IMG/VR virus record: IMGVR_UViG_3300033463_000011
Span: 32,001-96,000 of that record
Source: a virus
Lineage: Duplodnaviria; Caudoviricetes
DNA: 64,000 nt
Strand: one strand, 5' to 3'
The notes below the pieces were generated by a model. It saw only the letters and a list, made by a program, of their open reading frames with translations, did not search any database and was not told where the DNA came from. This document shows positions 14,831-60,449 of the stretch, one piece after another (position 1 is the first letter of the stretch; every line of letters begins with the position of its first letter). The position numbers and the translations under genes are program-made.

Positions 14831-15301
14831 ATGAAAATCTATGCTAAATCAAAGGGCAACAAAAATGACGAGTATTATAATCGACTTCCATTACCTTCAC
14901 AAGTAAAACGGTTAGGTAAATATTTAGAAGACAATCTTGTAGGTGTAGATCATACAAAATCACATCAGCCTCCAAATGAATACATAATTTATGATACTAT
15001 TTTATATCAGATAAAGAAATCGCTTCGTCAAGAAATGAAACAGTATCCTGAATTAGAAGGTGTAGAAGAAAAAATATATACCGCAAACTTATATTTTAAT
15101 ATAACAACATATCAACAATATATACGACTTGATGTAATTAAGCTTGATAAATATGAAAAGACATTAGGATACTTAAGATTTGAGCCTAAAGACCTGATCA
15201 GTTTACCTTATTGTAAAAAGAAATTATTGGATTATGTTAAGAAAGTAATTGGTAAAGAATATAAAGGCTATGACGTTTTGTTAGTTGATGAGGACATATA
15301 A
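14831..15301 (+). CDS. Hypothetical protein with MKIY N-terminal tag
   Basis: Starts MKIYAKS. Confidence 0.6.
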   Translation: MKIYAKSKGNKNDEYYNRLPLPSQVKRLGKYLEDNLVGVDHTKSHQPPNEYIIYDTILYQIKKSLRQEMKQYPELEGVEEKIYTANLYFNITTYQQYIRLDVIKLDKYEKTLGYLRFEPKDLISLPYCKKKLLDYVKKVIGKEYKGYDVLLVDEDI

Positions 15302-15643
15302 ATGCGTACACTTAATCTGCCAGATACTAATCATTTCTATGCTCCTGCAGATGATGAATGTTGGATTATTTTAGCTAAAGAAATAATGGGATCATATTCT
15401 CAGCAATATGCTAACCAAATTGTATATAGTGCATTCAGCCAAGAAGAATATGATAGATTAGATAGGCAAAGATGTGTACCTCAGAGACGAAGCATATTAC
15501 GCAAAGTTAAACATGGTCCATTAAAAAATATTATAGATATGCCCTCAGTATATCGCGCATTTGAAATCAAAAGATTAGAGAATTTAAAGTCATTAGGAGT
15601 ACAGTGGGAGGATAAATATTTTGAAAATATCGAAGACCTCTGA
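15302..15643 (+). CDS. Hypothetical protein
   Basis: ORF coupled to neighbours. Confidence 0.55.
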   Translation: MRTLNLPDTNHFYAPADDECWIILAKEIMGSYSQQYANQIVYSAFSQEEYDRLDRQRCVPQRRSILRKVKHGPLKNIIDMPSVYRAFEIKRLENLKSLGVQWEDKYFENIEDL

Positions 15644-16232
15644 ATTTAATTATACAGATATGTTAGAAGCAATCAAGATGTTGGGGTTTGAACATCTTGA
15701 AATGAATTTCTTTAGACGAGTCGAAGAAATAGATATAGATTCTAATTTAGTATTATATTGCGAAATATATGATGATTGCGCTAAAGTAGATGTTTATGAA
15801 GATGCAACTCAAATAGATTCACAATCATTTAAGAGACCTATAAAATTAATAGATTACATTGAGAATCTTTTAAAATCTTATGATATTGAAAGTATTAAAT
15901 TAGTGCCCCGCGAAGACGACAATTCTACTTCAGTATTTGGGGCAACTACACGAGATTTTGCAAAGAAGTTACTTAGAGTTAAATCATCAAATGTATGGAG
16001 TTATGCATTTCAACCAAAAACAGAACAAATCGGCGACTTGCTAATGCAATTTAAGGGAGATAATGGAGGTCCGGGAGATATTTATATCTATTATGATGTC
16101 CCTAGCAAGATATGGCGAAAGCTAGTTGCTGCCCCTTCGAAAGGACACGCATTTTGGGAATATATAAGGAACATATTTAAATATGCTAAATTAACAGGCG
16201 ACAAGAGGACGCATTTACCGAATGGAATTTAA
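15621..16232 (+). CDS. KTSC-domain protein
   Basis: C-terminal VKSSNV..Y...L.MQF...Y.YYDVP..W..L..APSKG..F...IR. Confidence 0.8.
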   Translation: MKISKTSEFNYTDMLEAIKMLGFEHLEMNFFRRVEEIDIDSNLVLYCEIYDDCAKVDVYEDATQIDSQSFKRPIKLIDYIENLLKSYDIESIKLVPREDDNSTSVFGATTRDFAKKLLRVKSSNVWSYAFQPKTEQIGDLLMQFKGDNGGPGDIYIYYDVPSKIWRKLVAAPSKGHAFWEYIRNIFKYAKLTGDKRTHLPNGI

Positions 16233-16257
16233 TTAAATAATATAAAGGAGAACAATT

Positions 16258-16509
16258 ATGCACTACTTAGTAATTGAAATTCAAACAAACGAGGGAGTTA
16301 TGTCTGTACTGAATTATCAGTATAATGATTTACCTACTGCAGAACAGCAGTATTATCTTATCCTTTCATCTGCTGCAGTAAGTACATTAGATGTTCATGC
16401 CGCTATGATCGTAGATGAGAATGGTTTTGTAATCAAAAACAACAGTTATAGACATACTAAAGCACCTGACATTGAACCTGAAATTGAATCTGAACCTGAA
16501 GAAACCTGA
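16258..16509 (+). CDS. Conserved phage hypothetical protein
   Basis: SD AAAGGAG; YLVIEIQ..AEQQYY.ILSSAAVS..VHAA. Confidence 0.6.
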   Translation: MHYLVIEIQTNEGVMSVLNYQYNDLPTAEQQYYLILSSAAVSTLDVHAAMIVDENGFVIKNNSYRHTKAPDIEPEIESEPEET

Positions 16510-16514
16510 TAGTT

Positions 16515-16847
16515 ATGAAAATATACGCATCAAAACAGCCCACACTTGATACATTTGTTGGAAGAGATGTTTGGGTTAAAGTAAATATCATGACAGATGA
16601 AGGATTTCCAATATCTTTTTTACACGCGTATTATTGGATCCGAGTTATTTCAAAAAGATGTCTGGATTCAGAAACAGTATATAAAATAAACAGATTATCT
16701 GATTGGGATTTAGATGACGAAAATCATTATGACGGATCAGTTCCGCAGGATTGGGCATTAAATAACACAGAGGAATATCTTGAAGGATATATCAATCTAG
16801 TTAAGCCTGTAGAAGCACTTCCTACATCGGAGATATTTGAAGAATGA
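16515..16847 (+). CDS. MKIY-tag protein, paralog of 16844
   Basis: MKIYAS..LDTFVGRDVWVKV..PVEALPTSEIF. Confidence 0.65.
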   Translation: MKIYASKQPTLDTFVGRDVWVKVNIMTDEGFPISFLHAYYWIRVISKRCLDSETVYKINRLSDWDLDDENHYDGSVPQDWALNNTEEYLEGYINLVKPVEALPTSEIFEE

Positions 16848-17209
16848 AGATATATTGTAGTGGGTTACAGCCTGTAACTGAAGAACTTATCGACAAATTT
16901 ATCGGCAAAGATATTTGGGTTAGAACTTGTTATGTTACTTATGGAACTCAATGGATGAAGTTTCTGTCTAAAAAAGTGGATGTAGACAAGCGAGGATTCA
17001 AATTTGTATATTGTTTAGTATCTCGAATTGCTCAGAAATATGTAGAAAACACGTATATCGGAGATTCTGACGATGTACAGAAAATACTAGACTCAATGGA
17101 AGATAGTCCAATGTTCATAGATATACGAAACTTGAGATTTGACTATCCTCCAGAAGTTTTAACAGAAGATGAAATTATAGAGATAGTAAAATCAAATGCA
17201 CAAGGATAA
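16844..17209 (+). CDS. MKIY-tag protein, paralog of 16515
   Basis: MKIYCS..IDKFIGKDIWVRT..PPEVLTEDEII. Confidence 0.65.
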   Translation: MKIYCSGLQPVTEELIDKFIGKDIWVRTCYVTYGTQWMKFLSKKVDVDKRGFKFVYCLVSRIAQKYVENTYIGDSDDVQKILDSMEDSPMFIDIRNLRFDYPPEVLTEDEIIEIVKSNAQG

Positions 17210-17860: not shown

Positions 17861-17995
17861 ATGCCAGTACATCAAACAAAAGGTGGAGGATATCAGTGGG
17901 GTAAATCCGGAAAGATCTATTATGGGAAAGGGGCAAAAGCTAAAGCTGAAAAACAAGGTAGAGCTGCATACGCTAACGGGTATAAAGGAAAATGA
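17861..17995 (+). CDS. Small basic conserved phage protein (44 aa, not in ORF track)
   Basis: MPVHQTKGGGYQWGKSGKIYYGKGAKAKAEKQGRAAYANGYKGK; SD AAGGAG. Confidence 0.8.
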   Translation: MPVHQTKGGGYQWGKSGKIYYGKGAKAKAEKQGRAAYANGYKGK

Positions 17996-18015
17996 AAATA
18001 TATGGACCAATTATT

Positions 18016-19501
18016 TATGTAATTCTATTAAATTATATTTAATAGAATTATAATTTATATTAAACCATAAAATATCGGATTTTATAATAAGAGTATTTAT
18101 TTTTATTATATCAGGTATTATAATATTAATATGATATTGAAAACCTGGAAACAAAATATAAAACATATTTCTTCTGCGGAGTATGAAATACTACGTAAGA
18201 TGTGTAGATTGTCTAAAAATGTATATAATACTTCTTTATATAATATTAGACAACATTATTTTGCTGAGAAGTCATATCTTAGGTTTGAAGCTAACTACCC
18301 TTTAATGAAATGTGATGATAATTATAGATTATTAGGTGCTAACGTAGCTCAACAAACTATGCGGTCTGCGGACCAATCATTTAAGGCGTTCTTCGGGTTA
18401 TTGAAGTTAGCCAAATCTGGCAGATATGAATCCTGGAGGATTAAATTACCTAAATACTTGGATAAAGATGCATATTATCCAATAAAATTTGCACAGGCCG
18501 CTATAACTGATGGCAAATTACTTGTTCCAATGTCTCCGGAAATGAAGAGAGTTACAGATACTAGAATAAGAATACAAATTCCTAAGTATTTAGCAGATAA
18601 GAAAATTCATCAAGTTCACATAATCCCTAAGCATAATGCTAAGTTCTTTGAAATAAGATATATGTTTGAAGATATTGAGGAGGGTATCAATTATGATTTA
18701 GATAGAACTAAAGCACTAGCTATTGATTTTGGTATCAATAATTTCTGCACTTGCGTAACTAATGATGGTAACTCATTTATAGTAGACGGTAAAAAATTAA
18801 AATCTATCAATCAATGGTACAATAAAGAATTGGCCAGACTGTCATCTATAAAAGATAAACAGAAGATTAAGCATTGCACAAATTTACAGTATTCCAAAAT
18901 TAATAAGCGGAATAATCAAATTAATGATTACATTTACAAATCGGCTAAATTTATAATTAATTATTGTGTAGAGCATAAAATCGGTAATCTAGTAGTTGGC
19001 TACAATGATGGCTTCCAAGACAAAGTAAATCTCGGTAAGGTTAATAATCAGAAATTTGTTATGATTCCATATGGTCGACTGAAGGACAGGTTAGAATATC
19101 TTTGTAAATTACATAATATTAATTATATCTTACAAGAAGAGAGTTATACTTCTAAAGCGAGCTTCTTCGATTACGACGATGTCCCTGTATGGAATCCTCA
19201 AAATCCTAAACAAGGTAATTTTTCGGGTAAAAGAATTTCACGAGGCCAATATCTAACTCAAGATAAAACTGTAATTAATGCCGATGTAAATGGAGCGCTG
19301 AATATTTTAAGAAAAAGTAATGTTGTAAGCTGCAAAGCTTTATACAGTAGTGGCGACGTGATTACGCCTTTAAGAATAAGGTTGGTCAGAAGCAATTCTG
19401 GTGGAAACTTAAACAGCAAACTTCTTAATAATTAGTTTTATACAAAATCGTTAATAGTAATTAACAATTTTTATAATTCTATTATCATAACAATTATTCA
19501 A
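18016..19501 (+). mobile_element. tnpB-only IS200/IS605-family element (IS1341-like); ends approximate
   Basis: Perfect left hairpin AATTCTATTAAA/TTTAATAGAATT (18021-18049), imperfect right hairpin ~19453-19483, no tnpA. Confidence 0.75.
18131..19435 (+). CDS. tnpB: RNA-guided endonuclease TnpB
   Basis: LAIDFGINN (RuvC-I), QEESYTSKAS, INADVNGALNI (RuvC-III). Confidence 0.92.
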   Translation: MILKTWKQNIKHISSAEYEILRKMCRLSKNVYNTSLYNIRQHYFAEKSYLRFEANYPLMKCDDNYRLLGANVAQQTMRSADQSFKAFFGLLKLAKSGRYESWRIKLPKYLDKDAYYPIKFAQAAITDGKLLVPMSPEMKRVTDTRIRIQIPKYLADKKIHQVHIIPKHNAKFFEIRYMFEDIEEGINYDLDRTKALAIDFGINNFCTCVTNDGNSFIVDGKKLKSINQWYNKELARLSSIKDKQKIKHCTNLQYSKINKRNNQINDYIYKSAKFIINYCVEHKIGNLVVGYNDGFQDKVNLGKVNNQKFVMIPYGRLKDRLEYLCKLHNINYILQEESYTSKASFFDYDDVPVWNPQNPKQGNFSGKRISRGQYLTQDKTVINADVNGALNILRKSNVVSCKALYSSGDVITPLRIRLVRSNSGGNLNSKLLNN

Positions 19502-19664: not shown

Positions 19665-20516
19665 TCATTCATCAGATTCAGAATAGTATTCATCAGAATA
19701 ATTAAAGGCTTCTTGAACGCTAATAGCTTCTTCAAGTTGCCTTTTTAATTTTTCCTCAGCACCAGGACGTGCTGCTACTAATTCATCGAACGGGATACCA
19801 TACATCTGAGACATCTTAAGTAAAAATGAATCTTCTAATTTAGATTCTCTTTCAAGCATTTCATGAATGATTAAATCTTCAATAGAATCATATTCGTCAT
19901 TATATAACTCATCAATTCTATCTTCGACAACAGTTGCCGCAGGCTTATAAATAGAGATATCATTAACATCAGCATTATTCATTGTGCAGAATATTGCTCT
20001 AAGAGCTTCCATTTGGTCAGGAGGTAATTTAACTTTAGCAATATCTTCATAAGTAACATCTGACCAATACTTGCCTAATTGTTCTCCTGCTTTCATACAT
20101 AAGGAGCGCCGCAATGTCCACTTGACATTATCAAATTCACGCTCCATACACTCTGTTATTCTCGGTTTAAAGAAACTAGTAAACGCTAAATCAGTTCTAT
20201 ATTTTTTACCTATCTCAGGAGTAAACATATATTTTGCCCATAACTGATTACTCATAAAATGACAAATCGCTGATTGATATTTATCCTCTAAAGTAGCAGT
20301 TTGATTATTAACATATTTTGTTTTCGCTATATACCAGAAAAAATTATCATTCAACATAATAACTTCATCTCGTATATCTGTATAAGAATCTCTTTCTGCT
20401 AATGTAGTTTGCGGAAGAAAACTATACAGCTCTAATGTACGTAATTTAATCCAATCAACATTTTTCAACGATGATTTATCTAGTTGTGTTGGGTAAGAAG
20501 AACAATAATAATCCAT
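19665..20516 (-). CDS. Phage sigma70-like factor
   Basis: IRDEVIMLN..FFWYIAKTKY..LEDKYQSA..FTSFFKPRI resembles sigma region 2; SD GAGGTG. Confidence 0.6.
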   Translation of the reverse strand: MDYYCSSYPTQLDKSSLKNVDWIKLRTLELYSFLPQTTLAERDSYTDIRDEVIMLNDNFFWYIAKTKYVNNQTATLEDKYQSAICHFMSNQLWAKYMFTPEIGKKYRTDLAFTSFFKPRITECMEREFDNVKWTLRRSLCMKAGEQLGKYWSDVTYEDIAKVKLPPDQMEALRAIFCTMNNADVNDISIYKPAATVVEDRIDELYNDEYDSIEDLIIHEMLERESKLEDSFLLKMSQMYGIPFDELVAARPGAEEKLKRQLEEAISVQEAFNYSDEYYSESDE

Positions 20517-41283: not shown

Positions 41284-42276
41284 ATGGAAAAATATGTATT
41301 CAGCGGGTCAATAAGACCTTTTGTCCATGATAAGTTGATGTCGCTACCTGATTTTGAACCTCTTGATGTTCTTGTAACTCAGCTTGATAGGCGTGAAATT
41401 GAAACTGTAATCAAGTATAAGCAAGATGGATTTTGCAGATGGTTATTCATTGATTCAGGTGCATTTAGTATACACACAGGTAATGCCCATTTTCCCGATA
41501 AATCAATTAAAGAGCCTACATTCAGACAGTGGGAAGATAATTATATTGATTATCTTAATAGCATTGATGAATATATTGATGTCTGCGCTCAACTTGATAC
41601 TATTCCTGGTAAGTTCCAGCAGCCTAAGAAACCTGAGGACTATGTAGAATCTGCCCAAAAATCTTGGGATAATTATCTTTATATGCGTAGTAAACTTAAG
41701 TCTCCTCAAAAGGTAATGCCAGTATTTCACTACGGAGAAGATCTTAGTGCATTAAAGAATATGTTAGAGTGGCGTGCAGAAGATGGAAGTAAACTAGATT
41801 ATATCGGGATATCTCCTGCTAATGATGCTTCGCAAGATGAAAAAGATACATACATTGCGCAATGCAATGATATAATTGCAAAATCAAGTAATCCTAATGT
41901 AAAAACACATTTATATGGAATGACATCATTACAGTCGCTTGCAAAGAATAAGTGTTATTCGGCAGATAGCGTAAGCCATAGATTGCAAGCTGCATATAAT
42001 CATCTTCTTTCGCCTACATTCGGAACAATTTCAGTATCTACTAGAATACGTAAGAAGAACGGTAAGTCGAATGCTTCGTTTGATTATTTTGCAAATGAAC
42101 ACGACATGAATACACTTAAGGAAGAATTAGCTAAGTGTCAATTGACCTTTGAAGAGGTTCAAGATAGTTCTGATGCAAGGACTGTTTTTAACATCTGGGG
42201 AATTCAACAAATGATAAAGGGCAAGTATAGATATAACGAAGATAAGAAGGTTAAGAAGGCTAAGAAGTTGTTCTAA
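41284..42276 (+). CDS. dpdA: DpdA-like 7-deazaguanine DNA transglycosylase (TGT fold)
   Basis: FIDSGAFS, QLDTIPG, MPVFHYGE, HLYGMT, SADS; que genes in the same window. Confidence 0.82.
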   Translation: MEKYVFSGSIRPFVHDKLMSLPDFEPLDVLVTQLDRREIETVIKYKQDGFCRWLFIDSGAFSIHTGNAHFPDKSIKEPTFRQWEDNYIDYLNSIDEYIDVCAQLDTIPGKFQQPKKPEDYVESAQKSWDNYLYMRSKLKSPQKVMPVFHYGEDLSALKNMLEWRAEDGSKLDYIGISPANDASQDEKDTYIAQCNDIIAKSSNPNVKTHLYGMTSLQSLAKNKCYSADSVSHRLQAAYNHLLSPTFGTISVSTRIRKKNGKSNASFDYFANEHDMNTLKEELAKCQLTFEEVQDSSDARTVFNIWGIQQMIKGKYRYNEDKKVKKAKKLF

Positions 42277-42316
42277 CCTTTAATAGAAGTATATATTATG
42301 TAAAGGGGTATATACT

Positions 42317-43196: not shown

Positions 43197-43961
43197 ATGA
43201 GGTTAAGCAGAATCTATACATCAAAAATGTATTTAACTAATCCTCGTAGGGATAGGATTCATGCAGCTATTAATAGCCCTGAGAATGTAGAATTAGTTCA
43301 GCAATTTGCAGATTATTTAGATGATGATTCTAAAGAAATATTAAAGCAGGCTATTAAAGAGCAAGCGGAGGCTAAACAGGCAGAAGATGTAAAATCAGAA
43401 CCTAAGGAATCTGGTGAAGGCGGTACGTCTGAAGAAAACTTCCCTGATGCAGAACATAATGTATTTTCCCCTTCTTATAGCGGAGGATCTTCGTTTGATA
43501 TTCCTGACGAGGGCGGAGACGTTGATGAGGGTGTTGACATATTTGATGTTCCTGAAGAAGGCTCAGAATCTGCTGAACCTGAACCTGAGGCTGAAGTTGC
43601 TGACATAGAAGAGTCTACTGAAGTTTCTGGAAAAGTAATTACTGCAGATACTTCAATCGAAGAGATAATAGTTGACATTGTAAGTGAGTCAAATGTAATT
43701 AAAGGAACACTTAATAGCATCAAAGATACTGCAGGAGTTATTAGAATTGCTGTTGATGACAATGAGCTTTGGATTTATTATAAAGACGAAGTTAACATCG
43801 GCGATATAATGGTAAATGTAATTGAAACGCTCAATGGCGCTAACTATACATACCTTACATTTAGCAGATTAGCAAGGTCTAATAATGCGATTGTATTTGA
43901 TATTAATTTTAACTTACAAGAACCTGTAAAATCTATCAATGAGGTATCGGAGGAAACTTGA
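43197..43961 (+). CDS. Acidic protein, possible head core/scaffold
   Basis: Likely start MRLSRIYTS (SD GGAAGGTG); long acidic linker. Confidence 0.55.
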   Translation: MRLSRIYTSKMYLTNPRRDRIHAAINSPENVELVQQFADYLDDDSKEILKQAIKEQAEAKQAEDVKSEPKESGEGGTSEENFPDAEHNVFSPSYSGGSSFDIPDEGGDVDEGVDIFDVPEEGSESAEPEPEAEVADIEESTEVSGKVITADTSIEEIIVDIVSESNVIKGTLNSIKDTAGVIRIAVDDNELWIYYKDEVNIGDIMVNVIETLNGANYTYLTFSRLARSNNAIVFDINFNLQEPVKSINEVSEET

Positions 43962-44184: not shown

Positions 44185-45378
44185 ATGAATATACTTGCTG
44201 CTGATTTAATCAGATACAATGCAAATAATAGGGGAACATACACTGGCGATTGTACTGCCCGTGCTATTTCTCTTGCGTTTAATATGGATTATCATAAAGC
44301 AAGAAAATTATTGAATGATTCTGCGAGAGAAAATTGGAGACTTAATTGGCAGTATAATTCTACTAACAATGTCAAGAAAGTAATTGAAAAACTCGGCGGC
44401 GGAAAAGCAGCAATATTGGTTGGTAGAGAATACACAGTTAATAGTTTTGCAGATTCACATAATCAAGGTACATATATTCTTCATTGTAATGATAATGGTA
44501 AAGAAGGCGGACCTGGAGGTCATTTAGTTACCATAATTGACGGTAAAGTATATGACAGTTGGGATTCTAGAAATTGTTATGTATTAACTTATCATAGAAT
44601 TGATTCGGGAATTCGCGGAGAAGATATAACTGATGTAGGCGAGTATCTTGCTCAATTCTTTAAATCAATGACTTCTCAAGGCCTAATTTCTTATGCCAAT
44701 AATGTATTTGATACAGTAGTTGACAAAAATAAAAAGTTAAAGAAACTCTCAGATGAGTATGGTGTAGATATAAGTCTATCTTTATCAGTAAGAAAAGCAG
44801 TATTCAAAGACTACGTGTTCAAATTTGTATATTCTGTTAGCGTAGATATTCCTTCCTATAACATATACAACAGTTCATATAGCAGTAAATTTGGAATTAC
44901 ATTTTCACCTACAATGACACCTGATCAAGTAGAGCCTTCATTCAATGCAAGATTTTATACAAAGATCTATGATTTTGTTAATTCAATCGTTAAGAAAATT
45001 GAAGATACTTGTGATGGGTATAGATTAATTGAACAGAATCGCGAAGGTATTACTATTCCTGATAGATTAAGATATCAATATGATAGATGGGACAGTGCAA
45101 CTGAGAAAAGCTTTAATGCATTACCTTATTGGGTAAGAAGATTAACTAAATGGTTTAGTAGGCGTAGTCCTTTTGAAGGTGGAGATTATGATAGCGTTGA
45201 ATTAACTATCTACACTCCGCCATTTGATACTAAATATGGACAAGCTACAGAAAATACAGTAGATCCAGATACACGGTACTTTCATGCGTACAATATGAAT
45301 GATTTAATGCGAGGATTGCAACATTATAGAGTTACTGGAGATTACGATGAAGCATATTTAATCGCAGGTGATTATTAA
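44185..45378 (+). CDS. Protein with papain/C39-like Cys-His-Asp N-terminal domain
   Basis: GDCTARAIS..GHLVTIIDGKVYDSWDS. Confidence 0.6.
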   Translation: MNILAADLIRYNANNRGTYTGDCTARAISLAFNMDYHKARKLLNDSARENWRLNWQYNSTNNVKKVIEKLGGGKAAILVGREYTVNSFADSHNQGTYILHCNDNGKEGGPGGHLVTIIDGKVYDSWDSRNCYVLTYHRIDSGIRGEDITDVGEYLAQFFKSMTSQGLISYANNVFDTVVDKNKKLKKLSDEYGVDISLSLSVRKAVFKDYVFKFVYSVSVDIPSYNIYNSSYSSKFGITFSPTMTPDQVEPSFNARFYTKIYDFVNSIVKKIEDTCDGYRLIEQNREGITIPDRLRYQYDRWDSATEKSFNALPYWVRRLTKWFSRRSPFEGGDYDSVELTIYTPPFDTKYGQATENTVDPDTRYFHAYNMNDLMRGLQHYRVTGDYDEAYLIAGDY

Positions 45379-45788
45379 TGAAATTGTATATTCGAGCATC
45401 GTTATCTAAAGAAGAACAGTTTCAAATTATCAATGAAACTAATCCTGCTCCTGAAGAGATGTATACTTGGATAAGGTCGGTAGATGATATACAAACTTTT
45501 CAAGAAGCTTTTGAAAATAATCGGGATGGCTATTCGGAAGGATTTACTGAGGACTATACCACAGAAGATATGTTAGCTGCTATACGCACTGGTAAGATAA
45601 CTGTATACAGCTCATATCCAATAGAGAACGGAAAATTTGTAACGCCTTCATATATGGAAGCAAAAAGCTACGGAGGCAGTTATGGAGTATATACAGCAAC
45701 TGTTGATTTAGATGATATTGCTTGGATAGATGTAGATCAAGGGCAGGTTGCAACAAATAAGAAGATAAATTACAAAAAGATAAAGTAA
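45378..45788 (+). CDS. MKLY-tag protein, possible ART-like fold
   Basis: MKLYIRAS; ITVYSS..FVTPS..EAKSY..V.LDDIAW. Confidence 0.5.
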   Translation: MKLYIRASLSKEEQFQIINETNPAPEEMYTWIRSVDDIQTFQEAFENNRDGYSEGFTEDYTTEDMLAAIRTGKITVYSSYPIENGKFVTPSYMEAKSYGGSYGVYTATVDLDDIAWIDVDQGQVATNKKINYKKIK

Positions 45789-45833
45789 CCTTATATCTAT
45801 TTGTATAAAAATTCATAAAGGAGATATTATATC

Positions 45834-46295
45834 ATGAAGAGATATATCCGTTCCGCTAATAAAATTTCTAACAAGATTACTCAGAAGATTGCTGATAAGA
45901 AATTCAACGAGAACGAAATCTTAGTAAGAGCTCTTGCAGGTGAGCATAAGGGTGAACCTATGATGTATGTATTCTTCAACATCATGCTTGATCCTAATGT
46001 TCAGATTGAAAATCCTAATCAGCTTGAAGGTAACCACACAATTTTCTACAATGGTAAGAATATTGGTTGGATTAATTTTGAGAGAGGTATGGGTTGGATT
46101 GACGATAGAGCTTATGATAAGATTCAGAAAGTTGATCCTGCTGTATTAGATCAGCTCATTGCTCAGTGGTTTGCTCAATTCGGTCTCGGTGCTGGCGCTG
46201 ATTATGCTCCTGCAGACGAATCATTAAGAATTGATGATGGCAGAACAACATACGGCCCTGACTTCTTTGATGACGATCAGAGTTATTGGTCATAA
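45834..46295 (+). CDS. MKRY-tag hypothetical protein
   Basis: MKRYIRSA; AACCTT motif at 45787; strong SD. Confidence 0.6.
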   Translation: MKRYIRSANKISNKITQKIADKKFNENEILVRALAGEHKGEPMMYVFFNIMLDPNVQIENPNQLEGNHTIFYNGKNIGWINFERGMGWIDDRAYDKIQKVDPAVLDQLIAQWFAQFGLGAGADYAPADESLRIDDGRTTYGPDFFDDDQSYWS

Positions 46296-48902: not shown

Positions 48903-49024
48903 AATTATAATATTTGGGCAAGCACATGGTTGTCTATCAGTCAAAGGTTAAGATCAAATAGGTCTTAACCTTAATTAATTATGAAATAACATCTAAAATT
49001 TATGATTTTAGGAGAATAGGAAAA

Positions 49025-49943: not shown

Positions 49944-50165
49944 ATGGAAATTGTAACAATATCCGCAGAATTATGGGGCTATACTGGTTCAGAAGTATTT
50001 TATATCATGTCTGATAAAAGGGATATGAATAAAAATAAGAAAAAGTTAGTAGATACTCTTTATGGCTTAGCATTAGCTCGTAATTATCCTACAACAAAAG
50101 AAGATATTGAAGCTACTGTTGAGTATGATATGGATATTCAGTTAGGTGAAGTTTATAAGCAGTAA
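49944..50165 (+). CDS. Hypothetical protein
   Basis: SD AAGGAG. Confidence 0.5.
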   Translation: MEIVTISAELWGYTGSEVFYIMSDKRDMNKNKKKLVDTLYGLALARNYPTTKEDIEATVEYDMDIQLGEVYKQ

Positions 50166-50183
50166 CTATTTCAAAGGAGATAA

Positions 50184-50633
50184 ATGAAGTTATATGTAAG
50201 GACAGCTGAATCAGAAAAGTCTACTCCCGAAGGAAATGTAGGCATCTGGTGGTATTGCAACGGCAACGTTGTAGGGGAATTCTGTCCTGTGGCTGAAGGG
50301 GTGGAAGATAGAGGCTACATCCAATTCAGTAAGACAAAGAATCATATAACAGAATGGGAAACAACAATCAAAGAGCAGCTTCCTGAAGCTATTGATTTAA
50401 TTTCAAAAGGATATAGGTCAATAGAAAGAGGTCGTGTAGTTTATGATATTCGTTCTCAAGTATATGAAATCATATGTAGTCAAGCAATTGCTGCTGATAA
50501 AGATGCTATAGACCTTATTGCTAAAGAATTTAGTATTTCAGATTTGAGATATGATGTAATACCGAGTTCTCATTATTATGTTCCTACATATACAGGAAAT
50601 CCTGCATTAGATAATTTTGATTTTGGAGATTAA
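50184..50633 (+). CDS. MKLY-tag hypothetical protein
   Basis: MKLYVRTA; GIWWY..H..W..RGRVVYD. Confidence 0.6.
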   Translation: MKLYVRTAESEKSTPEGNVGIWWYCNGNVVGEFCPVAEGVEDRGYIQFSKTKNHITEWETTIKEQLPEAIDLISKGYRSIERGRVVYDIRSQVYEIICSQAIAADKDAIDLIAKEFSISDLRYDVIPSSHYYVPTYTGNPALDNFDFGD

Positions 50634-50658
50634 ATAGATGAAAATAGGAGGAGAATAA

Positions 50659-51012: not shown

Positions 51013-51030
51013 TTTGAGAGAAGTACATAT

Positions 51031-51075
51031 ATGAAGATTTATATCAAATCTACGTCAGATTTACATGAGAAATAA
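51031..51075 (+). pseudogene. Tag-only mini-ORF MKIYIKSTSDLHEK
   Basis: Translated by hand; matches the family tag with no cargo. Confidence 0.45.
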
Positions 51076-51119
51076 ATAACACAGAGAATAGCAGTTTAAT
51101 TTCTAGGAGGAATACATAA

Positions 51120-51305
51120 ATGCAGATTAAGAAAACAAAAAAGTCAGAAGTAACAGCTTCAAAGAAATCATCCGATAATGATAAAGCATTATCTCATATT
51201 AAAGCTGCAATCGACATTCTTGCTACACGCAATGACGAAGTATCCAAAGACAGTATCGCTAATCTTGGTGTAGTAATGTTCGATTTAATGGGCAGTGAAG
51301 AGTAA
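51120..51305 (+). CDS. Small protein with basic N-terminus and VTAS motif
   Basis: SD AGGAGG. Confidence 0.6.
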   Translation: MQIKKTKKSEVTASKKSSDNDKALSHIKAAIDILATRNDEVSKDSIANLGVVMFDLMGSEE

Positions 51306-52967: not shown

Positions 52968-53023
52968 ATGATTATTACAAGGATAGAAAATACTTTGTAT
53001 ATCGACATGTTGCGCCTAATTAA
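52964..53023 (+). pseudogene. 19-codon remnant of a GIY-YIG endonuclease between the split-intein halves
   Basis: MNDYYKDRKYFVYRHVAPN*; ATGA overlap, GAGGT SD. Confidence 0.6.
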
Positions 53024-53038
53024 TTCGGAGGTCTATTA

Positions 53039-54526
53039 ATGAAAGTTGCTAAAATAGAACATATTCATTATGATGACTCAATACCTGTATATGACGTTGT
53101 CAATGCAGGAGACTTACATAATTTTGTAATACACACTGAGGATAGTGATGTTATTGCTCATAACTGTCTCATGGATGAGGTAAACTTCGCACGTGCCGGT
53201 ATAAAAGATATTACTATATCTAAAGGCCAGATGAAGAAAATGTACGATACAGCTAATGCACGTATTACAGGTACATTTAAGCTTGAAGGTAGAATATATG
53301 GTAAAATGTTCACCTGCTCATCTAAGAGTAGTGATAATGATTATCTTTCTGACCACATAGAAAAGCAGATAGATGCAGGCAATACGCATATGTATCTCTT
53401 TGATGAACCTCAGTGGAAAGTATTACCTGCATACAGATTTGGTAAAGAGAAGTTCTATATTACTATCGGTGATAGATATAAGAGAGGTTTCGTTGTCCCT
53501 GATGAAAATTCTGATGAAGAACATTTACAGGAATATAGAAATGAAGGCTATGAGGTCCTGGAAGTTCCTGCGGATTATAAACCTAACTTCAAAGCCGATT
53601 ATGATATCGCTTTAAGAGATATAGCCGGTAGGTCAGTAGTAGGTTCAATGGGTTTCATTACTCAGGAAATGATTACTCCTAATGTAAGCACTACTAGAGT
53701 AAATCCTTTCTTTGAGGATTACTATGAAATCGGCGTAAGAGATAATGATACAATAGAACGTCATTTTCATCTAGAAGTGGTTCCTGCTTACCTCAAGCAA
53801 TTACCTATGTATATTCACATCGACTTCGCTGAAAAGTCAGACCATATTGGCATTTCAGGAGTAGTAACTGATGGTAATAAGACAATATTAGATATTGAAA
53901 CAAATAAGAAGATAATGATGCCATTCTTTAGACAGATGTTCCAAGTAGCTATCGGTGCTCCTAGAGGAGATAAAATGTCATTCCAGAAAGTAATCAACTT
54001 CATACTGTGGTTGAGGCGAAGTGGATTTAATATTGGATTAGTTACTACCGACCAATATCAATCTTCTTATGTAAGAGAGACTTTAGATCAGCAAGGTTTT
54101 GAGACAGATAAGATTTCAGTAGATAGAACAATTGACCCATATATCTCACTTAGAAACTTGCTTCAAGATCAGAGAATCGAATTAGTTAAGTGCGATCTGC
54201 AAGAAATTGAGATGATTAACTTAGAGAGAAATGGAGATAGAATCGACCACAAACCTCAAAGTAATGCAGGAGCAGGTAGCGCTCTACCATGTTTAGCTAA
54301 TGGATACAATAGCAAAGGTATTGGTAAGGACTGTGCAGACGCTCTTTGTGGTGCTTGTTCTACAGCTATCGCCCATCTTGATTTAGTACGGCCTCCTGCA
54401 AAGAATGTTATTAATGCAATAGCATCAGTGAATACAGGAAAGGGTACTGGAATGTTTCCCAATAGATATGGGACAGGAACACGTCAACCACTACCTGGTT
54501 TTGGTAGTCAATATAGAAGATTTTAA
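53039..54526 (+). CDS. terL: Split-intein C-fragment fused to terminase large subunit C-part
   Basis: MKVAKIE..VYDVV..HNFVI..IAHN|CLMDEVNF (Walker B); nuclease HIDFA..D, DQYQS, KDCADA; own GGAGG SD. Confidence 0.92.
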   Translation: MKVAKIEHIHYDDSIPVYDVVNAGDLHNFVIHTEDSDVIAHNCLMDEVNFARAGIKDITISKGQMKKMYDTANARITGTFKLEGRIYGKMFTCSSKSSDNDYLSDHIEKQIDAGNTHMYLFDEPQWKVLPAYRFGKEKFYITIGDRYKRGFVVPDENSDEEHLQEYRNEGYEVLEVPADYKPNFKADYDIALRDIAGRSVVGSMGFITQEMITPNVSTTRVNPFFEDYYEIGVRDNDTIERHFHLEVVPAYLKQLPMYIHIDFAEKSDHIGISGVVTDGNKTILDIETNKKIMMPFFRQMFQVAIGAPRGDKMSFQKVINFILWLRRSGFNIGLVTTDQYQSSYVRETLDQQGFETDKISVDRTIDPYISLRNLLQDQRIELVKCDLQEIEMINLERNGDRIDHKPQSNAGAGSALPCLANGYNSKGIGKDCADALCGACSTAIAHLDLVRPPAKNVINAIASVNTGKGTGMFPNRYGTGTRQPLPGFGSQYRRF

Positions 54527-54544: not shown

Positions 54545-56107
54545 ATGCTGTTCACAAAAACCGTTTGTAGTGCCGGTTCGTTAGTATATATCGTACCGAC
54601 CGGACTGCTTGTAACACTCCGCTACGATGCCCATGGAATACTTTACAAAGTGTATCAAGGTATCAATGTATTAGAGGAACTTCCTGAAGATTTCCTCAAA
54701 ACAATTGTACGAATGGGGTTAGTTCCTAATTCTATCAAGCTTCACGGAGGTACAACAGATATTTCTGGTGTATTCTATTCTAATACTATTAAATCCAAGG
54801 AAGGTCTTCTTCCTGATTGCGAATTTAATAGACTTGTAGAAGACATCAAATCTGGCACACCTGGATATAGATTCTATGTAGGTAATGTAGAAAGTGGAGC
54901 AATGCAAATAACTCCATCATCCATGCAAGCTTGGACAAAGATGGTAGGATTTGAATCGTTACCTTGTTGGGCAGTTCCAATTAATGCAACTGAAGAAACA
55001 CTTAGATCATATATAACAGATAACACATATATTCCTTTTGAATATCCTTTGCTTTCAGGATTCTTTATATTTGAAGGTCAGAATAAGGCAAAGTATTATG
55101 ATTTGCATTTAAAAACAGCTACAATATCAGAGAAACCCGAAAGATTTACTGATCATGACGGTTATATCAAATACGGTTTAGCTTATGGTAATAATGAGTC
55201 TATCAGCATTGATTATCCCGATGCTGTTAAATTCAATATTCAAAAAGGATCTCAAGTTGTTTTTGATGGAGATAAAATTATCTGGAGCGACACTAAATCT
55301 TTAGAAGATAAGTTACCTACAAGAACTGTATGCACATATTGCAACAAGATTCTTGATGTACCTTCTAATGGCCCAATGACTTGTTCTGATGATTTTTGTA
55401 TCTCTAAGTTATATCCTAGAATCCAGAGATTCTGTAAAATACTTGGTTTAGAAGAATTAACTATAGAAGAATTTGATAAAGCAATTACTAAACAGCAGAT
55501 TCAGATACTTCCTGATCTATTGTTGCTTCCAAAGTATTCTGATATTAAGATTAAGAATCATCTGTCCGAAGTACTTCTTGCAAGCATAAATGGCGATGTA
55601 GGAATGAATAGAGAATGGCTGGTTAAGTTCTGCAATAAATGTAACAATTCTTATAAGACTGTTAAATATTATTTTGAAGGTCCTAGAAGAATTGCAACTG
55701 AATTAGATATGCAATTGCCTCCGAGATTTGGTAATTGGTTAGCAGAACCTCGCAATCTTATTGAGTTAGATACAATAATGAACTCAGAACAAATTGAATT
55801 GCTTGAAGCAAATCGAATTGTTAAGTTTGACGGAATGCCTCTTCTTAGAAATAAGAAACTAATGATAACAGGAACATTTATGCATGGGTCTACCGAAGAT
55901 ATAGTTGCCATATTACAAAGCTACTCTGCAGAGGTTGTAACTCAATTTGATAAAAAGGTTCAATGCGTCATTGTTGGAGACATCAAAGAAAACATTGATG
56001 GGCTTGCTATTCAAGCTGCAAGAGAATTAGATCTTCCAATGTTTACAGAGAGTGAATTCTTTGCAAGATACCAGATAGACGAAGACCTTGAGAAATTCTT
56101 GAAGTAA
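54545..56107 (+). CDS. NAD-dependent DNA ligase-fold protein, probably inactive, with BRCT domain
   Basis: GLLVTLRYD resembles post-motif-I LigA but KxDG reads VPTG; LPTRTVCTYC..C....C Zn finger; ITGTF..VIVGD..ARELDLPMFTESEF BRCT. Confidence 0.7.
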   Translation: MLFTKTVCSAGSLVYIVPTGLLVTLRYDAHGILYKVYQGINVLEELPEDFLKTIVRMGLVPNSIKLHGGTTDISGVFYSNTIKSKEGLLPDCEFNRLVEDIKSGTPGYRFYVGNVESGAMQITPSSMQAWTKMVGFESLPCWAVPINATEETLRSYITDNTYIPFEYPLLSGFFIFEGQNKAKYYDLHLKTATISEKPERFTDHDGYIKYGLAYGNNESISIDYPDAVKFNIQKGSQVVFDGDKIIWSDTKSLEDKLPTRTVCTYCNKILDVPSNGPMTCSDDFCISKLYPRIQRFCKILGLEELTIEEFDKAITKQQIQILPDLLLLPKYSDIKIKNHLSEVLLASINGDVGMNREWLVKFCNKCNNSYKTVKYYFEGPRRIATELDMQLPPRFGNWLAEPRNLIELDTIMNSEQIELLEANRIVKFDGMPLLRNKKLMITGTFMHGSTEDIVAILQSYSAEVVTQFDKKVQCVIVGDIKENIDGLAIQAARELDLPMFTESEFFARYQIDEDLEKFLK

Positions 56108-56143
56108 CCTTGTATGTATTTATAAAGTTGGAGGATTCTCAGA

Positions 56144-57673
56144 ATGCCTAGATGGTTAGATAAATTATTTGGACCCCGAAAGCTTAACCTTCCTTCTCGT
56201 TTGAGAAGTACTGTTTGCGTAGGCGGTACATTTTACAAGATATCCGATCTTCGCGGAGATTCAGATATTGAAGATATTAGGACACAGATAACAGTAATGA
56301 GAGCACTTGCAAGAGACTCTCAAATCAGCACTGCTTTATCTTATTATGCAACAGATGCTACTACGCCAAATACTGCAGGCGACGTTATTTGGGCAACTGC
56401 AATAGATGAAAATCATCAGCAAGTGGCTGATATTATAAATACTTGCTTCAAAAGATGGCGAGTAAACGATTACGCAAGAGACCATATTCTTGAGTTAGCT
56501 ACAATTGGTCAGCTATATATGCCAACAACGGAAATGTATAGAGTACCTGGAGCTCATCAGAATAGAAACCTTGTATCTTTAGACGATAATACACTTCCTA
56601 ACATGGAATATGACATTATTCCGTCATATATGATACCGCCTGAGGATATTATTCACTTGTGGTATCAAGGACAACCTCAAGGTTACCTTTATCAAGAAAC
56701 TGCAAATGCTAATACTTCGTCGTTCTCCGGTGAACAGATAATCAGCTATCCTGAATCTTCTGTAATTCATTTTTCATTAGGCGGATTACTTGGAAACTAT
56801 AGCATTACAGGCACAGATAATCAAGGTAATGCTGTAAGTTATGATATTCAATTTGCAGAACCTATATTATCACAAGCAGTTCAGCCTACACAAACATTAA
56901 GTCTTTTAGAGGACGCTATGTTACTTTCTTCGTTAACTCGTACAGTAAGATTCATCAACGTAGATTGCGGTACAACCACTGAGGAAGATGAAATAAGACA
57001 AAATCTGCAAATAATTAAAGACATGATTGAGCAGCAATTAGCGCTTAATACAGCTACAGGTAATGCAGAAAGTTTTGTAAATCCTCAGAGCCCTAATAAC
57101 TTAATCTATCTTGCTAAAGTAAATGGCCAAGATGCTGTATCTATTACAGACCTTAACATGGGTGAGCCTACAGAAAGTGAGAATAAACTTCTTGATTATT
57201 ATCAAGATAAGAAGTTATCTGTATTGGGCGTTCCTAAAGAAGCAATGAATTTTTCCTCTGCTGAAGGTTTAGGCGGTGCAGGTGCTGTAATGTCACAAAG
57301 ATCTGCATTATATGCTAATCACTTGCTTCGAATTGAAACAGCTTATAAAAATGGTTGGCGAGATGCGCTTAACAAATACTTCGAATCAAGAAATATGAGC
57401 GGATTTAAGGATAAGTATATTCTTAATATGTCTCCTATTATCACAAACATGGATCAAGTACAATTTGAGAAGCGTGATGCGTCTATTCAGCAGGCAGCTT
57501 CACTTATTGATTTGCTTAAGAACTTAGGCGTAGAGGAAAATGATGCTTATAAGAAAGCATTAACTGAAATATTGACACAAGCATTCCCTCAAACCGGTGC
57601 ATCAGTTATGAAATGGGATATCAATGTTGAATCCGGCGGAGAAGAGGGCGAAGGCGGAATGGGAGGATTTTAA
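56144..57673 (+). CDS. Portal protein (T4 gp20-like)
   Basis: DSQISTALSYYA, R.VRFINVDCG, LLDYYQDKKLSVLGVPK; position after terminase. Confidence 0.75.
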   Translation: MPRWLDKLFGPRKLNLPSRLRSTVCVGGTFYKISDLRGDSDIEDIRTQITVMRALARDSQISTALSYYATDATTPNTAGDVIWATAIDENHQQVADIINTCFKRWRVNDYARDHILELATIGQLYMPTTEMYRVPGAHQNRNLVSLDDNTLPNMEYDIIPSYMIPPEDIIHLWYQGQPQGYLYQETANANTSSFSGEQIISYPESSVIHFSLGGLLGNYSITGTDNQGNAVSYDIQFAEPILSQAVQPTQTLSLLEDAMLLSSLTRTVRFINVDCGTTTEEDEIRQNLQIIKDMIEQQLALNTATGNAESFVNPQSPNNLIYLAKVNGQDAVSITDLNMGEPTESENKLLDYYQDKKLSVLGVPKEAMNFSSAEGLGGAGAVMSQRSALYANHLLRIETAYKNGWRDALNKYFESRNMSGFKDKYILNMSPIITNMDQVQFEKRDASIQQAASLIDLLKNLGVEENDAYKKALTEILTQAFPQTGASVMKWDINVESGGEEGEGGMGGF

Positions 57674-57921
57674 ATGAAAGCATACAAATCTTACAAATTT
57701 AGAATCTACCCTGATTTTGATCAAAAAACTAAATTAAATAAAACTTTTGGATGTGTCAGATTTATATATAACAAAATGCTTGAAGATAAGAAGGATTATC
57801 TATGTTAACTATTTAAACTTATATTGAACCGTAGGAACTACGGAGATAGCTCGTTGATACTTAAAACAGTAGTTTTATTGAGCGAGAATCTAATTCTAAT
57901 GTAATTTAGAAAGGAGTTCAC
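57674..57921 (+). mobile_element. Internally deleted tnpB element: 44-aa TnpB N-terminus plus right-end/omegaRNA-like sequence
   Basis: MKAYKSYKFRIYPD..KTFGCVRFIYNKML (57674-57808); ACCGTAGGAACTACGGAGATAGCTCG..CGAGAATC..GGAGTTCAC. Confidence 0.8.
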
Positions 57922-57924
57922 ACC

Positions 57925-58278
57925 GTGAGATCTTCAAAAGAACTAACTGACATATTTTTCAAAAACTTAAAAGATTATAACTCAACTAATTTCAAAACTC
58001 TTGAAAAGGCAGACCTGTCTAAATATAATGCTGTAACTCATAAAGCGTTTAGTTCAGTACTCACTCGTTATTTCATATTCATAGAAAAGAACCCAGAAAT
58101 AACTGATGAAGAAAACAAAGTATTATACTTTAAGCTTAAGTTAGACATGATTGGAACTTATTTTAGTCAGTATCCTGAAAGTGATACCAATTATTTAAGA
58201 GGATTTCAATTAGAGTTGCGAGATTGGATAAAAGAACACAAAGAATATCTAGAAGACACTGAGAGGGCTACTGCATGA
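57925..58278 (+). CDS. Hypothetical protein
   Basis: GTG start; SD AAAGGAG lies within the IS end. Confidence 0.55.
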   Translation: MRSSKELTDIFFKNLKDYNSTNFKTLEKADLSKYNAVTHKAFSSVLTRYFIFIEKNPEITDEENKVLYFKLKLDMIGTYFSQYPESDTNYLRGFQLELRDWIKEHKEYLEDTERATA

Positions 58279-58910
58279 ATGCTCCATTACGTTACAACAT
58301 ATCCAATTGGCTTCAGTTATCTGAATGTAAATCAAACAATTCGACCGATTTATATATTACAGTTAGGCAAATAATAGATGACGGTAGTCATAGATTAAGT
58401 GGTACATCTATATTAGTTCAGCATACTCAATATGGCACACTTTTTGCTTGCTTAGTAAATTCTAAAGGAAGTTTATTAACTCCTGACCCTGAATCTGGAA
58501 TAATTAAAGAATTTAGTACAGATGAAATCCTTGCAGAGTTAAACAAGTTTGGATTTGATGTAACCTTTGAAATTAATCAACATCTTAGCGGAGAACAAAT
58601 TTCTTATCTTATCACATTATCTGGTCTTAATTATGATAAGATAAGAAAACTCCCTGTATTTGAATACGATACAATGGGCAATAAATTATTTTCTGAATAC
58701 ATTGTTGCATTTAACGTAGAACATTGTCCTGATTGGATTGATGTAGATTATGTTTGCCGCAAATCGGATTTCTTAGAAAAGTTAAACGACGGAGTAGCAT
58801 CTAACCTAACATATATGAGTCAAACACAATTATTTGATTGGACTTGGCTTACTTATGTAGCAAACATTGATGACATTATTGAAGATAACGGATATGGAGA
58901 AGACGAGTAA
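58275..58910 (+). CDS. Hypothetical protein (structural module)
   Basis: ATGA-coupled. Confidence 0.55.
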   Translation: MNAPLRYNISNWLQLSECKSNNSTDLYITVRQIIDDGSHRLSGTSILVQHTQYGTLFACLVNSKGSLLTPDPESGIIKEFSTDEILAELNKFGFDVTFEINQHLSGEQISYLITLSGLNYDKIRKLPVFEYDTMGNKLFSEYIVAFNVEHCPDWIDVDYVCRKSDFLEKLNDGVASNLTYMSQTQLFDWTWLTYVANIDDIIEDNGYGEDE

Positions 58911-59455
58911 TGGCTCAACACTTAATAGGTCCAGATATAAAGTTGATGCGAAAGCGCTACGATGACGCACTTTCTATGCAAGGAGTTCCTTGTACTTATC
59001 AGTTTCCTAATCTTGCAAAAGCAAACGAGCAAGGTGAACCAGAAATTGATTCTTATTCAGAACCTATGGACACATATATCTTCTTTGAAGGTAACGTAAA
59101 AGCAACAACATTTAAGAGATACGGGTGGGTTGTAGATAACTCTAAAGAACTTCCATTTTTAATCCACTGTAGCTGGAACTTACCTAAAGTACAAAAAGAC
59201 AGTATTTTTACAATGTCAGGATTATATTCTGAACTAACCGAAAGAAAATTCAGAGTTACTGAGATTACTTATGACATGGTTGCAGCGGATCATCTCGTTT
59301 GCCAAGTAGTTCCGATAGCAAATGGGCAGCCTATCGTTGGAAGAACAAGAAAAGAAATTTCACAAACCTTTAATTCTTCTAGCCACTTTCTTAAAAAAGA
59401 CTCTGATTATCGTGGTGATACATATAGCGGAACTTACCATCCAGGAGATAAGTAA
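58910..59455 (+). CDS. Putative neck/head-closure protein
   Basis: Size and context; RYGW, FRVTEI pattern. Confidence 0.45.
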   Translation: MAQHLIGPDIKLMRKRYDDALSMQGVPCTYQFPNLAKANEQGEPEIDSYSEPMDTYIFFEGNVKATTFKRYGWVVDNSKELPFLIHCSWNLPKVQKDSIFTMSGLYSELTERKFRVTEITYDMVAADHLVCQVVPIANGQPIVGRTRKEISQTFNSSSHFLKKDSDYRGDTYSGTYHPGDK

Positions 59456-60090
59456 TGATTTATCTTTATGACCGAGCAATTGCAGATGATTTACAAAAAT
59501 CAATAAATTCTGAAAACGCAGAACCTAATGTGTTTATAGCAGATGCTGAAACATACGCTGGAGTATTTGCTCAAGTAAAAGAAGATACAATAACATATCC
59601 TATAATTTTGCTTGCAAGAGATCCGGATATGCCAGTAATAACTGATTTATGCAATTTTACTCGGTCACATTTCGGAGTACCTGCAGCTTTTGACAATAAA
59701 ACAAATACAATATACAACGAGCGGGCATTACCTGTAGATATTCGATATACATTAAGAATAATATCTACAAATGTAGCGGATTCAGATGAGTTAGCCCGGG
59801 AATTATTCTATAAATACTTATCGATGTATTATTTAACAATACAGCTTCCATATGAATCTGATAGAAAAATAAGATTTGGAATTGAAGTTGATAAAGATTA
59901 TGGAATAAAAAGAGAGTCAGGTAGTTTTGAATACCTCAAAAGTGGAGCGCTATATCAATCAACACTGCATCTTAACACGCAAGGTTGCGTATCGTTAACT
60001 TACACAGGACGTCATGTTCAAAGAATCGTTTATAATACAAAAGATATTCAAATAGAAAGTCCCGCAGGACCTGATGATAAGAAAGGGTAA
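59455..60090 (+). CDS. Putative tail-completion/neck protein
   Basis: YPIILL.R..LPVDIRYTL..D.LARE pattern; context. Confidence 0.5.
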   Translation: MIYLYDRAIADDLQKSINSENAEPNVFIADAETYAGVFAQVKEDTITYPIILLARDPDMPVITDLCNFTRSHFGVPAAFDNKTNTIYNERALPVDIRYTLRIISTNVADSDELARELFYKYLSMYYLTIQLPYESDRKIRFGIEVDKDYGIKRESGSFEYLKSGALYQSTLHLNTQGCVSLTYTGRHVQRIVYNTKDIQIESPAGPDDKKG

Positions 60091-60095
60091 GAAAT

Positions 60096-60449
60096 ATGAA
60101 AAAGACTGGTAGAAAACTTCCTTCAAACATTACAGCAGCTTCTAAGCCTAATGTGAAACTCAGAGTTGAATTTGAAACTTATGAACGCTTCGGCTCTGGA
60201 CAAATACGTAAAGCTACAGTTTCGGGAAACACATTATTAGATGCTCTTAAGAAAATGGTAGATAACATGCAGTTATATCTAGAATCTGATATGATAGAAG
60301 AAGAGAATATGACAGCAGAACAAGTTATTGAGGATATCGCAGGCTCTAATGGAGATGGTTGCGATTTTATCTTCTTATTAAAAAACCTTACAACTGGAGA
60401 AGTTTATATTGAAGAAGATTATTCTGAAGAAGATGAAGATTGGGACTAA
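60096..60449 (+). CDS. Acidic protein with basic leader and ITAAS motif
   Basis: MKKTGRKLPSNITAAS; GSNGDGCDFIF. Confidence 0.55.
   Translation: MKKTGRKLPSNITAASKPNVKLRVEFETYERFGSGQIRKATVSGNTLLDALKKMVDNMQLYLESDMIEEENMTAEQVIEDIAGSNGDGCDFIFLLKNLTTGEVYIEEDYSEEDEDWD

Follow-up and report, generated by a model that had tools for sequence, protein, structure and literature searches.

Bacteriophage T4 carries a short sequence for capsid targeting (CTS), M-K-T-Y-Q-E-F-I-A-E, at the N-terminus of proteins destined for its head (PMC8442874). For targeting, residues 4 and 7 of the CTS are important, for processing residues 8 and 10, and the T4 protease gp21 cuts after L/I-x-E (PMC9026906). Here we describe a comparable N-terminal tag in a virus of the Caudoviricetes. 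The DNA analyzed, called the window throughout, is a stretch of 64,000 nucleotides and corresponds to bases 32001–96000 of one 200,233-bp viral contig (IMG/VR record IMGVR_UViG_3300033463_000011; G+C 34.6%), with almost all genes on the same strand. Positions are those of the window unless the genome is named. A megablast search with the 42–52 kb region against named phages gave no relative, and the contig has no close named relative. The tag is 5–8 residues long, starts with M-K-x-Y and ends in [IV]-x-[A/S/C] followed by S or A. On balance we find it probable that it is a clip-off tag of the T4 CTS kind, that is, a short N-terminal propeptide cut by the phage's own T4/herpesvirus-type prohead protease with Ala/Ser specificity, on proteins that are loaded into the head.

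Distribution of the tag and its end site

All genome-wide counts use 318 crude gene calls. The M-K-x-Y start is found in 56 of them, about a fifth of the proteome, and occurs throughout the genome. Twenty-nine of these proteins belong to one paralog family of 37 members (100–125 amino acids (aa)), which includes the products of 16515 and 16844, and the other 27 have unrelated bodies of 42–560 aa. ATG frames of at least 55 codons with this start number 60 on the plus strand and 0 on the minus strand. Outside the paralog family, the 27 M-K-x-Y starts compare with about 3 expected. Among the first 6 residues of proteins, the core Y-[IV]-[KRQ]-[AST]-[AST] is found 17 times, and the whole proteome has it once internally; shuffles gave a mean of 0.07 and a maximum of 2.

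The preliminary description of this DNA had listed 15 starts, and the translation of each is as given there. It had counted about 12 tagged small proteins; 10 of these are true M-K-x-Y genes in the window, the starts at 17992 and 51031 are only stubs, and the tag is in fact genome-wide. Three starts regarded as looser relatives (43197, 51120 and 60096) have longer conserved leaders with the same terminal site. The proposal that the bodies are unrelated stands for the window, where clustering joins 16515 and 16844 only. The codons under the tag vary as had been stated: AAA and AAG, TAT and TAC, and all Ile, Arg and Ser codons are used, and selection is therefore on the peptide. No replication gene has the tag, again in agreement with the preliminary description; DnaB, primase, both polymerase halves, clamp loader and RecA start without it. 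It is likewise missing from the capsid protein and other abundant proteins. One supposed mark of the tagged proteins, that their bodies are often acidic, did not hold up. The median isoelectric point is 4.73 for tagged bodies outside the paralog family versus 5.09 for untagged proteins (p=0.44), and acidity was rejected as a cargo hallmark: the tagged bodies share it with the remaining proteins of the phage.

The motif at the end of the tag matches the site motif of the capsid protein and scaffold. The T4-type capsid protein (Pfam Gp23, E=1.5e-17) and a 497-aa protease-scaffold fusion are encoded outside the window, at 154.3–157.3 kb of the genome, and the T4-type portal gene lies inside it (Table 1). 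The fusion matches PHROG 207 (E=8e-19), and His70 and Ser125 are invariant in 12 protease-scaffold sequences (this genome and 11 relatives). It has the most internal [IVL]-[KRQT]-[AS]-[AS] sites of any protein in the proteome. A conserved candidate site, [IV]-A-A-[ST], falls at residues 165–168 and is followed by a predicted coiled-coil region with further sites. Three sites of the fusion, at the end of the protease domain, R-I-x-A-S-Q and V-T-A-S, are conserved in 11 relatives. The first 45 residues of the capsid protein make up a basic propeptide with three [IVL]-[KRQT]-[AS]-[AS] sites, and the capsid N-termini of relatives have two to four [IV]-x-A-[SG] sites in every case. Taken together, the capsid propeptide and protease-scaffold sites ([IV]-x-A-[SA]) are conserved in 11–15 relatives. 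Head-module proteins of relatives carry a 16-residue leader with the same Y-[IV]-x-A-S end, and the window protein at 60096 fits this pattern.

The homologues of the tagged protein at 47046 allow the site to be compared between phages. This family comprises 916 representative sequences, and the junction was compared in the 28 representatives where the start of the conserved body could be anchored. Immediately before the body, 14 have [YSK]-[IVL]-x-[AS]-A and 14 have [IL]-x-E-A (two of the latter end in D). Three of the Glu-type junctions fall inside longer proteins (residues 83, 420 and 805), some of them in proteins of 1400 and 1518 aa. Pfam on eight long homologues returned nothing useful. 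Judged by this alignment, the homologous junction carries either a T4-type or an Ala/Ser-type site. On one contig with the Glu form (L050, the ENA contig carrying P0213, from an unrelated phage of 31.5% G+C), 7 of 34 neighboring proteins begin with a short tag of the form M-[VI]-K-(K)-[LI]-x-E, ending in [LI]-x-E. It looks like the Glu-type counterpart of the tag studied here. The 47046 homologue on a 156-kb contig with the Ala form (L054) is encoded two genes upstream of those for the protease and the capsid protein. Its S-I-T-A-A site resembles the N-terminal sites of these two L054 proteins. Cleavage after [IV]-x-[A/S], proposed earlier from the window, agrees with the repetition of the motif in the capsid propeptide and protease-scaffold fusion, with its conservation in relatives and with its alignment to a T4-type [IL]-x-E|A site in the 47046 homologues. 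By comparative evidence, cleavage at the tag end appears well supported.

Proposed loading into the head and competing explanations

The tagged proteins are probably loaded into the capsid and trimmed in the way of T4 internal proteins; we infer the loading from the analogy with T4, the T4-type head genes and the gene context. Tyr4 is nearly invariant in the cargo tags and absent from the capsid and scaffold sites, and this points to a division of the tag into two parts. M-K-x-Y, which resembles the start of the T4 CTS, would probably serve for loading, and the prohead protease would cut at the other part, [IV]-x-[A/S/C] followed by S or A. The role given here to the Tyr of the cargo tags is a guess. 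We infer cleavage, packaging and injection in the following order. Tagged proteins would be made mostly alongside the late structural genes and would enter the scaffold core of the prohead. The protease would clip the tag off while trimming the capsid protein and cutting the scaffold, and the freed proteins would remain inside the head until, presumably, they pass into the host together with the DNA.

Two promoter-like motifs recur 30–70 nucleotides (nt) upstream of genes. The first, AACCTT-D-W-W-T, matches at 12 places in the window (11 on the plus strand). The expectation for the two strands combined is 4.2, and a count of 12 was reached in 1 of 100 shuffles. This motif stands ahead of the genes for the portal and the protease-scaffold fusion and of other large open reading frames (ORFs) beside head genes, as well as of the units starting at 42317, 45834, 49025 and 51425. 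The units headed by it include the tagged genes 42712–45378 and 45834–46628, and genes 14831–17209 follow without a gap four large ORFs that have the motif. Most tagged genes of the window thus lie in same-strand units downstream of a motif common to the portal and protease genes. The second motif, GAATCGTTATA, is conserved and lies 30–60 nt upstream of about 25 genes genome-wide (in the window at 4051, 21320, 25449, 28005, 35515 and 49628). It precedes the clamp-loader gene, other replication-block genes and genes next to the queuosine cluster, and is probably an early or middle promoter. The timing suggested for both motifs is read from gene neighbors only. A scan for sigma-70 promoters gave fewer sites than in shuffles.

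Several observations weigh against a tag that loads proteins into the head. About 60 cargo species, a fifth of the proteome, are far above the tag-packed cargo of any known phage. The bodies are acidic, while the T4 internal proteins are highly basic (PMC8442874). Pfam Peptidase_S77 scores only 22.7 bits on the protease-scaffold fusion, below the cut-off of 27, and the structural-protein sites are without the Tyr typical of cargo tags. Finally, some tagged genes follow GAATCGTTATA (the window unit 49671–51305, and genome positions 29595 and 99079). As the unit 49671–51305 also has this motif, timing is not uniform and expression is not purely late.

The location of cleavage is the point on which the first alternative differs. 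The tag could be a protease-removable propeptide and not a capsid address, one that keeps proteins inactive, times their late processing or directs them to a different part of the virion such as the baseplate or tail, with no storage in the head. The evidence from cleavage sites is silent on location, and the module encoded at 45378 is found in tape-measure proteins too, which suits this explanation. Prohead proteases of this class, however, are known to work within the prohead (PMC9026906), the targeting portion of the T4 CTS has its match in the M-K-x-Y start, and the L054 homologue has the head-gene neighbors described above. We rate this alternative as unlikely, though with enough in its favor to be kept in mind.

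A second alternative has no cleavage at all. The tag would be an N-terminal element favored for translation initiation or for the nascent chain, or an inherited element spread by cassette recombination. Starts of the A/T-rich M-K kind are indeed frequent in this genome (88 of 318 proteins), and tag DNA marks a deletion boundary at 51031. An uncleaved element does not, however, account for synonymous codons that vary while Tyr4, [IV]5 and the small residues at 7–8 stay, for its absence from the capsid protein and other abundant proteins, or for the same site being internal in the scaffold and in polyproteins and alternating with the T4-type Glu site, and we give it a low probability. The last alternative, in which a host AAA+ protease or other host factor would read the tag as a degradation or recognition signal at the N-terminus and so give the proteins a short, timed life, is the least credible: one type of N-terminal motif recognized by ClpX is Met followed by a basic residue and a hydrophobic run, which M-K-[ILV]-Y-[IV] fits superficially, and the tag is exposed and disordered in AlphaFold models, but such a signal leaves unexplained the match to the capsid propeptide and scaffold, the longer leaders with the same end site and the alternation with the Glu type.

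The clip-off tag that addresses proteins to the head can be extended to a broader proposal, which we put forward tentatively and would give somewhat less than an even chance. In this phage, which would be of T4 lineage, a minimal code of 5–8 residues (M-K-x-Y plus [IV]-x-Ala|Ser) would load about 60 proteins, a fifth of the coding capacity, including the 37-copy hypervariable family and free-standing polyvalent modules, and would be read by a head protease of herpesvirus-like specificity, with tag and protease co-evolving across many uncultured phages. The co-evolution of tag and protease as a portable addressing system is suggested because the same cargo families have Glu-type tags in other phages. 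If true, this would widen the T4 capsid-targeting principle from a few internal proteins of one phage group to a re-codable addressing in large uncultured gut and rumen phages. It would also predict virion-delivered early effectors among hundreds of unknown genes, connect phage and herpesvirus protease specificity, and provide a very short natural tag for putting foreign proteins in phage heads. For metagenomes, an N-terminal protease site would be a simple rule for finding repertoires of injected proteins.

Tagged genes, their products and neighboring genes

The tagged genes, stubs, variant leaders and related features of the window are listed in Table 1. Pfam and PHROG scans of the ten tagged window proteins gave a single match, PHROG 13543 for 45378.

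Table 1. Tagged genes, stubs, long-leader proteins, promoter-like motifs and portal gene of the window
Feature	Position	Strand	Remarks
Tagged gene, 156 aa, short form M-K-I-Y-A-K-S	14831..15301	+	Directly after four large ORFs at 6612-14598; no Pfam/PHROG match
Tagged paralog-family member, tag M-K-I-Y-A-S	16515..16847	+	Translation, clustering
Tagged paralog-family member, tag M-K-I-Y-C-S	16844..17209	+	Translation, clustering
Tag-only stub, 16 codons, just before TnpB-like gene; not a functional cargo gene	17992..18042	+	
AACCTT-D-W-W-T motif	42275..42284	+	Ahead of unit 42317-45788
Tagged gene, 160 aa	42712..43194	+	11 homologue clusters
Conserved very acidic protein, variant leader I-Y-T-S, second site I-H-A-A	43197..43961	+	
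Tagged gene, 136 aa, polyvalent/tape-measure module body	45378..45788	+	Homology from residue 11
AACCTT-D-W-W-T motif	45787..45796	+	Ahead of 45834
Tagged gene, 153 aa, directly 3' of late-type promoter-like motif	45834..46295	+	Orthologue on contig L013 retains tag
Tagged gene, 115 aa	46628..46975	+	Body = C-terminal part of 249-aa L013 protein
Tagged gene, 318 aa, large phage family	47046..48002	+	Pre-body junction A/S-type or E-type in homologues
Possible further member; I-T-S-[SA]-D site conserved at the N-terminus, duplicated in L030	48190..48663	+	
AACCTT-D-W-W-T motif	48967..48976	+	Ahead of 49025
Tagged gene, 90 aa	49671..49943	+	Orthologue tags in full form Y-I-[QR]-[ST]-S
Tagged gene, 149 aa, 99 homologue clusters	50184..50633	+	
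Tag-only stub, 14 codons, remnant of 172-aa cargo gene	51031..51075	+	
61-aa protein, 14-residue basic leader ending V-T-A-S	51120..51305	+	
AACCTT-D-W-W-T motif	56106..56115	+	Ahead of portal gene
T4-type portal protein	56144..57673	+	Pfam Portal_T4, E=1.2e-12
117-aa protein, long leader type, ~16 aa, ending I-T-A-A-S	60096..60449	+	As on head-module proteins of relatives

The tag is kept in homologues while its spelling changes. Orthologues of 49671, 45834 and 43197 retain it with varying letters, and those of 43197 spell the leader site I-F-A-S or I-Y-A-S. Among the homologues of 42712, all 10 full-length clusters have the tag, and one 126-aa cluster is without the N-terminal region. The 50184 family keeps the tag in most of its clusters, and a variable linker of 8 residues lies between tag and conserved body. 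Of the 9 relatives with a match to 51120, 8 retain its leader with the V-[KT]-A-S end; a variable insert comes next, and the C-terminal 45 aa are again conserved. In the 23 related loci retrieved around the portal gene, the 42712, 45378 and 47046 bodies have no counterpart. The stub at 51031 has 91% identity to the tag of a 172-aa gene that is intact in the relative L011. The two sequences are homologous over the tag and again from a point before the next gene, with a break in between, which means that the cargo body has been deleted. The earlier idea of a portable tag on swappable cargo therefore finds support in three kinds of observation, namely the varying spelling of the tag in orthologues, the other bodies carried by relatives and a tag-only stub that marks a deleted body.

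Residues 11–125 of the 45378 protein are 47–58% identical to an internal module of proteins of 1000–1900 aa, and the alignment begins right after the tag. These large proteins have ART-PolyVal, LPD3, LPD23, PBECR3, MuF_C or LPD38 domains, or are tape-measure proteins. Iyer et al. in 2017 reportedly proposed from comparative work that polyvalent proteins are delivered with DNA. Homology to a polyvalent module was found among the tagged bodies for 45378 only. The AlphaFold model of 47046 has a mean predicted local distance difference test (pLDDT) score of 92, with tag residues 1–10 as a low-confidence coil, and that of 50184 a mean pLDDT of 85, with residues 1–17, which include the tag, as a low-confidence coil. 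In both models the tag is thus predicted to be a disordered extension. Foldseek against the PDB gave no match for either model, and against BFVD the 47046 model hit only uncharacterized phage proteins. The 47046 protein is very acidic and has a poly-acidic tail. A wide VIA-align search with its model gave Z scores of at most 7.6, with the DNA-mimic proteins DMP19 at 6.5 and T4 Arn at 5.7, all within the noise range, and the modeled likeness to DNA-mimic proteins is a lead only. The polyvalent module of 45378 and this weak likeness lend indirect support to cargo that may act as anti-defense or takeover effectors.

The replication genes of the window recognized with Pfam are DnaB, primase, a split family-A polymerase, clamp loader and RecA, and the packaging and structural block holds a terminase fragment, the T4-type portal and a tail tube protein. 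Two ORFs (28948–30498 and 32312–33607) together encode the family-A DNA polymerase. Between the halves lies a 606-aa gene with a zinc-ribbon-like N-terminal start and matches to DUF7487 and Mom-like proteins; the genome contains four paralogs of it, including two directly after the capsid gene. The large terminase also seems interrupted (52005–54526), with a 320-aa terminase-matching fragment followed by a 495-aa ORF without a family match, where relatives have a single ORF of 654–678 aa. This interruption may be an intein or homing element. A TnpB-like gene of 434 aa (18131–19435) adjoins the tag stub at 17992, in a stretch of 29–30% G+C, and has a paralog at genome position 171831. A 44-aa fragment after the portal gene (57674–57808) is, by appearance, a candidate TnpB N-terminus. 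Two more ORFs stand out. One, of 283 aa and on the minus strand (19665–20516), sits in the AT-rich island that separates the TnpB-like gene from the replication block. The other, of 230 aa (5595–6287), lies between queuosine-related genes and large ORFs, and its N-terminus resembles by appearance a homing endonuclease of the HNH/NUMOD type.

Comparison with known systems

The T4 CTS of the internal proteins IPI-III, along with the propeptides of Alt, all removed by the prohead protease gp21, is the closest counterpart. In both cases a short leader with an M-K-x-Y start is placed on otherwise unrelated, fast-changing proteins, its end motif is the protease motif of the capsid protein and scaffold, and portal, capsid and probably also protease are of T4 type. 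The differences are also clear. The P1 residue here is Ala, Ser or Cys and not Glu; the sites of this phage do not follow the L/I-x-E motif, and the Glu form appears only in homologues from other phages. The tag has 5–8 residues compared with 10, and is found on about 60 genes, the 37-copy family included, compared with a handful. The bodies are acidic instead of basic, the protease is fused to the scaffold, and packaging is, for this tag, a prediction.

In the cleavage consensus of herpesviruses Ala is followed by Ser, Ala|Ser. A literature search for a citable form of this consensus found only the human cytomegalovirus (HCMV) protease sequence, which ends in Y-V-K-A. As in the herpesvirus assemblin, the protease domain and then the scaffold are joined in one polypeptide (PMC4498786), apparently with a conserved site at the end of the protease domain. 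The terminal Y-V-K-A of mature HCMV protease, its release site (PMC13486704), equals the commonest core of the cargo tags, Y-[IV]-K-A. Unlike herpesviruses, this is a phage with a T4-type capsid and portal, and a portable use of the site, as an N-terminal tag on many cargos, is not known from herpesviruses.

The giant phages phiKZ, 201phi2-1 and SPN3US are similar in that a diverged gp21-type protease cuts many of their head-internal proteins at a very short motif, and propeptides with several redundant sites are found there (PMC9026906). These proteases cut after Glu (S/A-x-E), however, and no uniform N-terminal tag has been described for them. A different likeness is seen with the polyvalent proteins (ART-PolyVal, LPD, PBECR, MuF_C) that phages and conjugative elements encode, of which the 45378 body is one module; homologues of 47046 also occur inside proteins of 1400–1518 aa, with the cut site before them. 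In polyvalent proteins the modules are beads on one giant protein, whereas here each is a small gene that stands alone and has a tag of its own.

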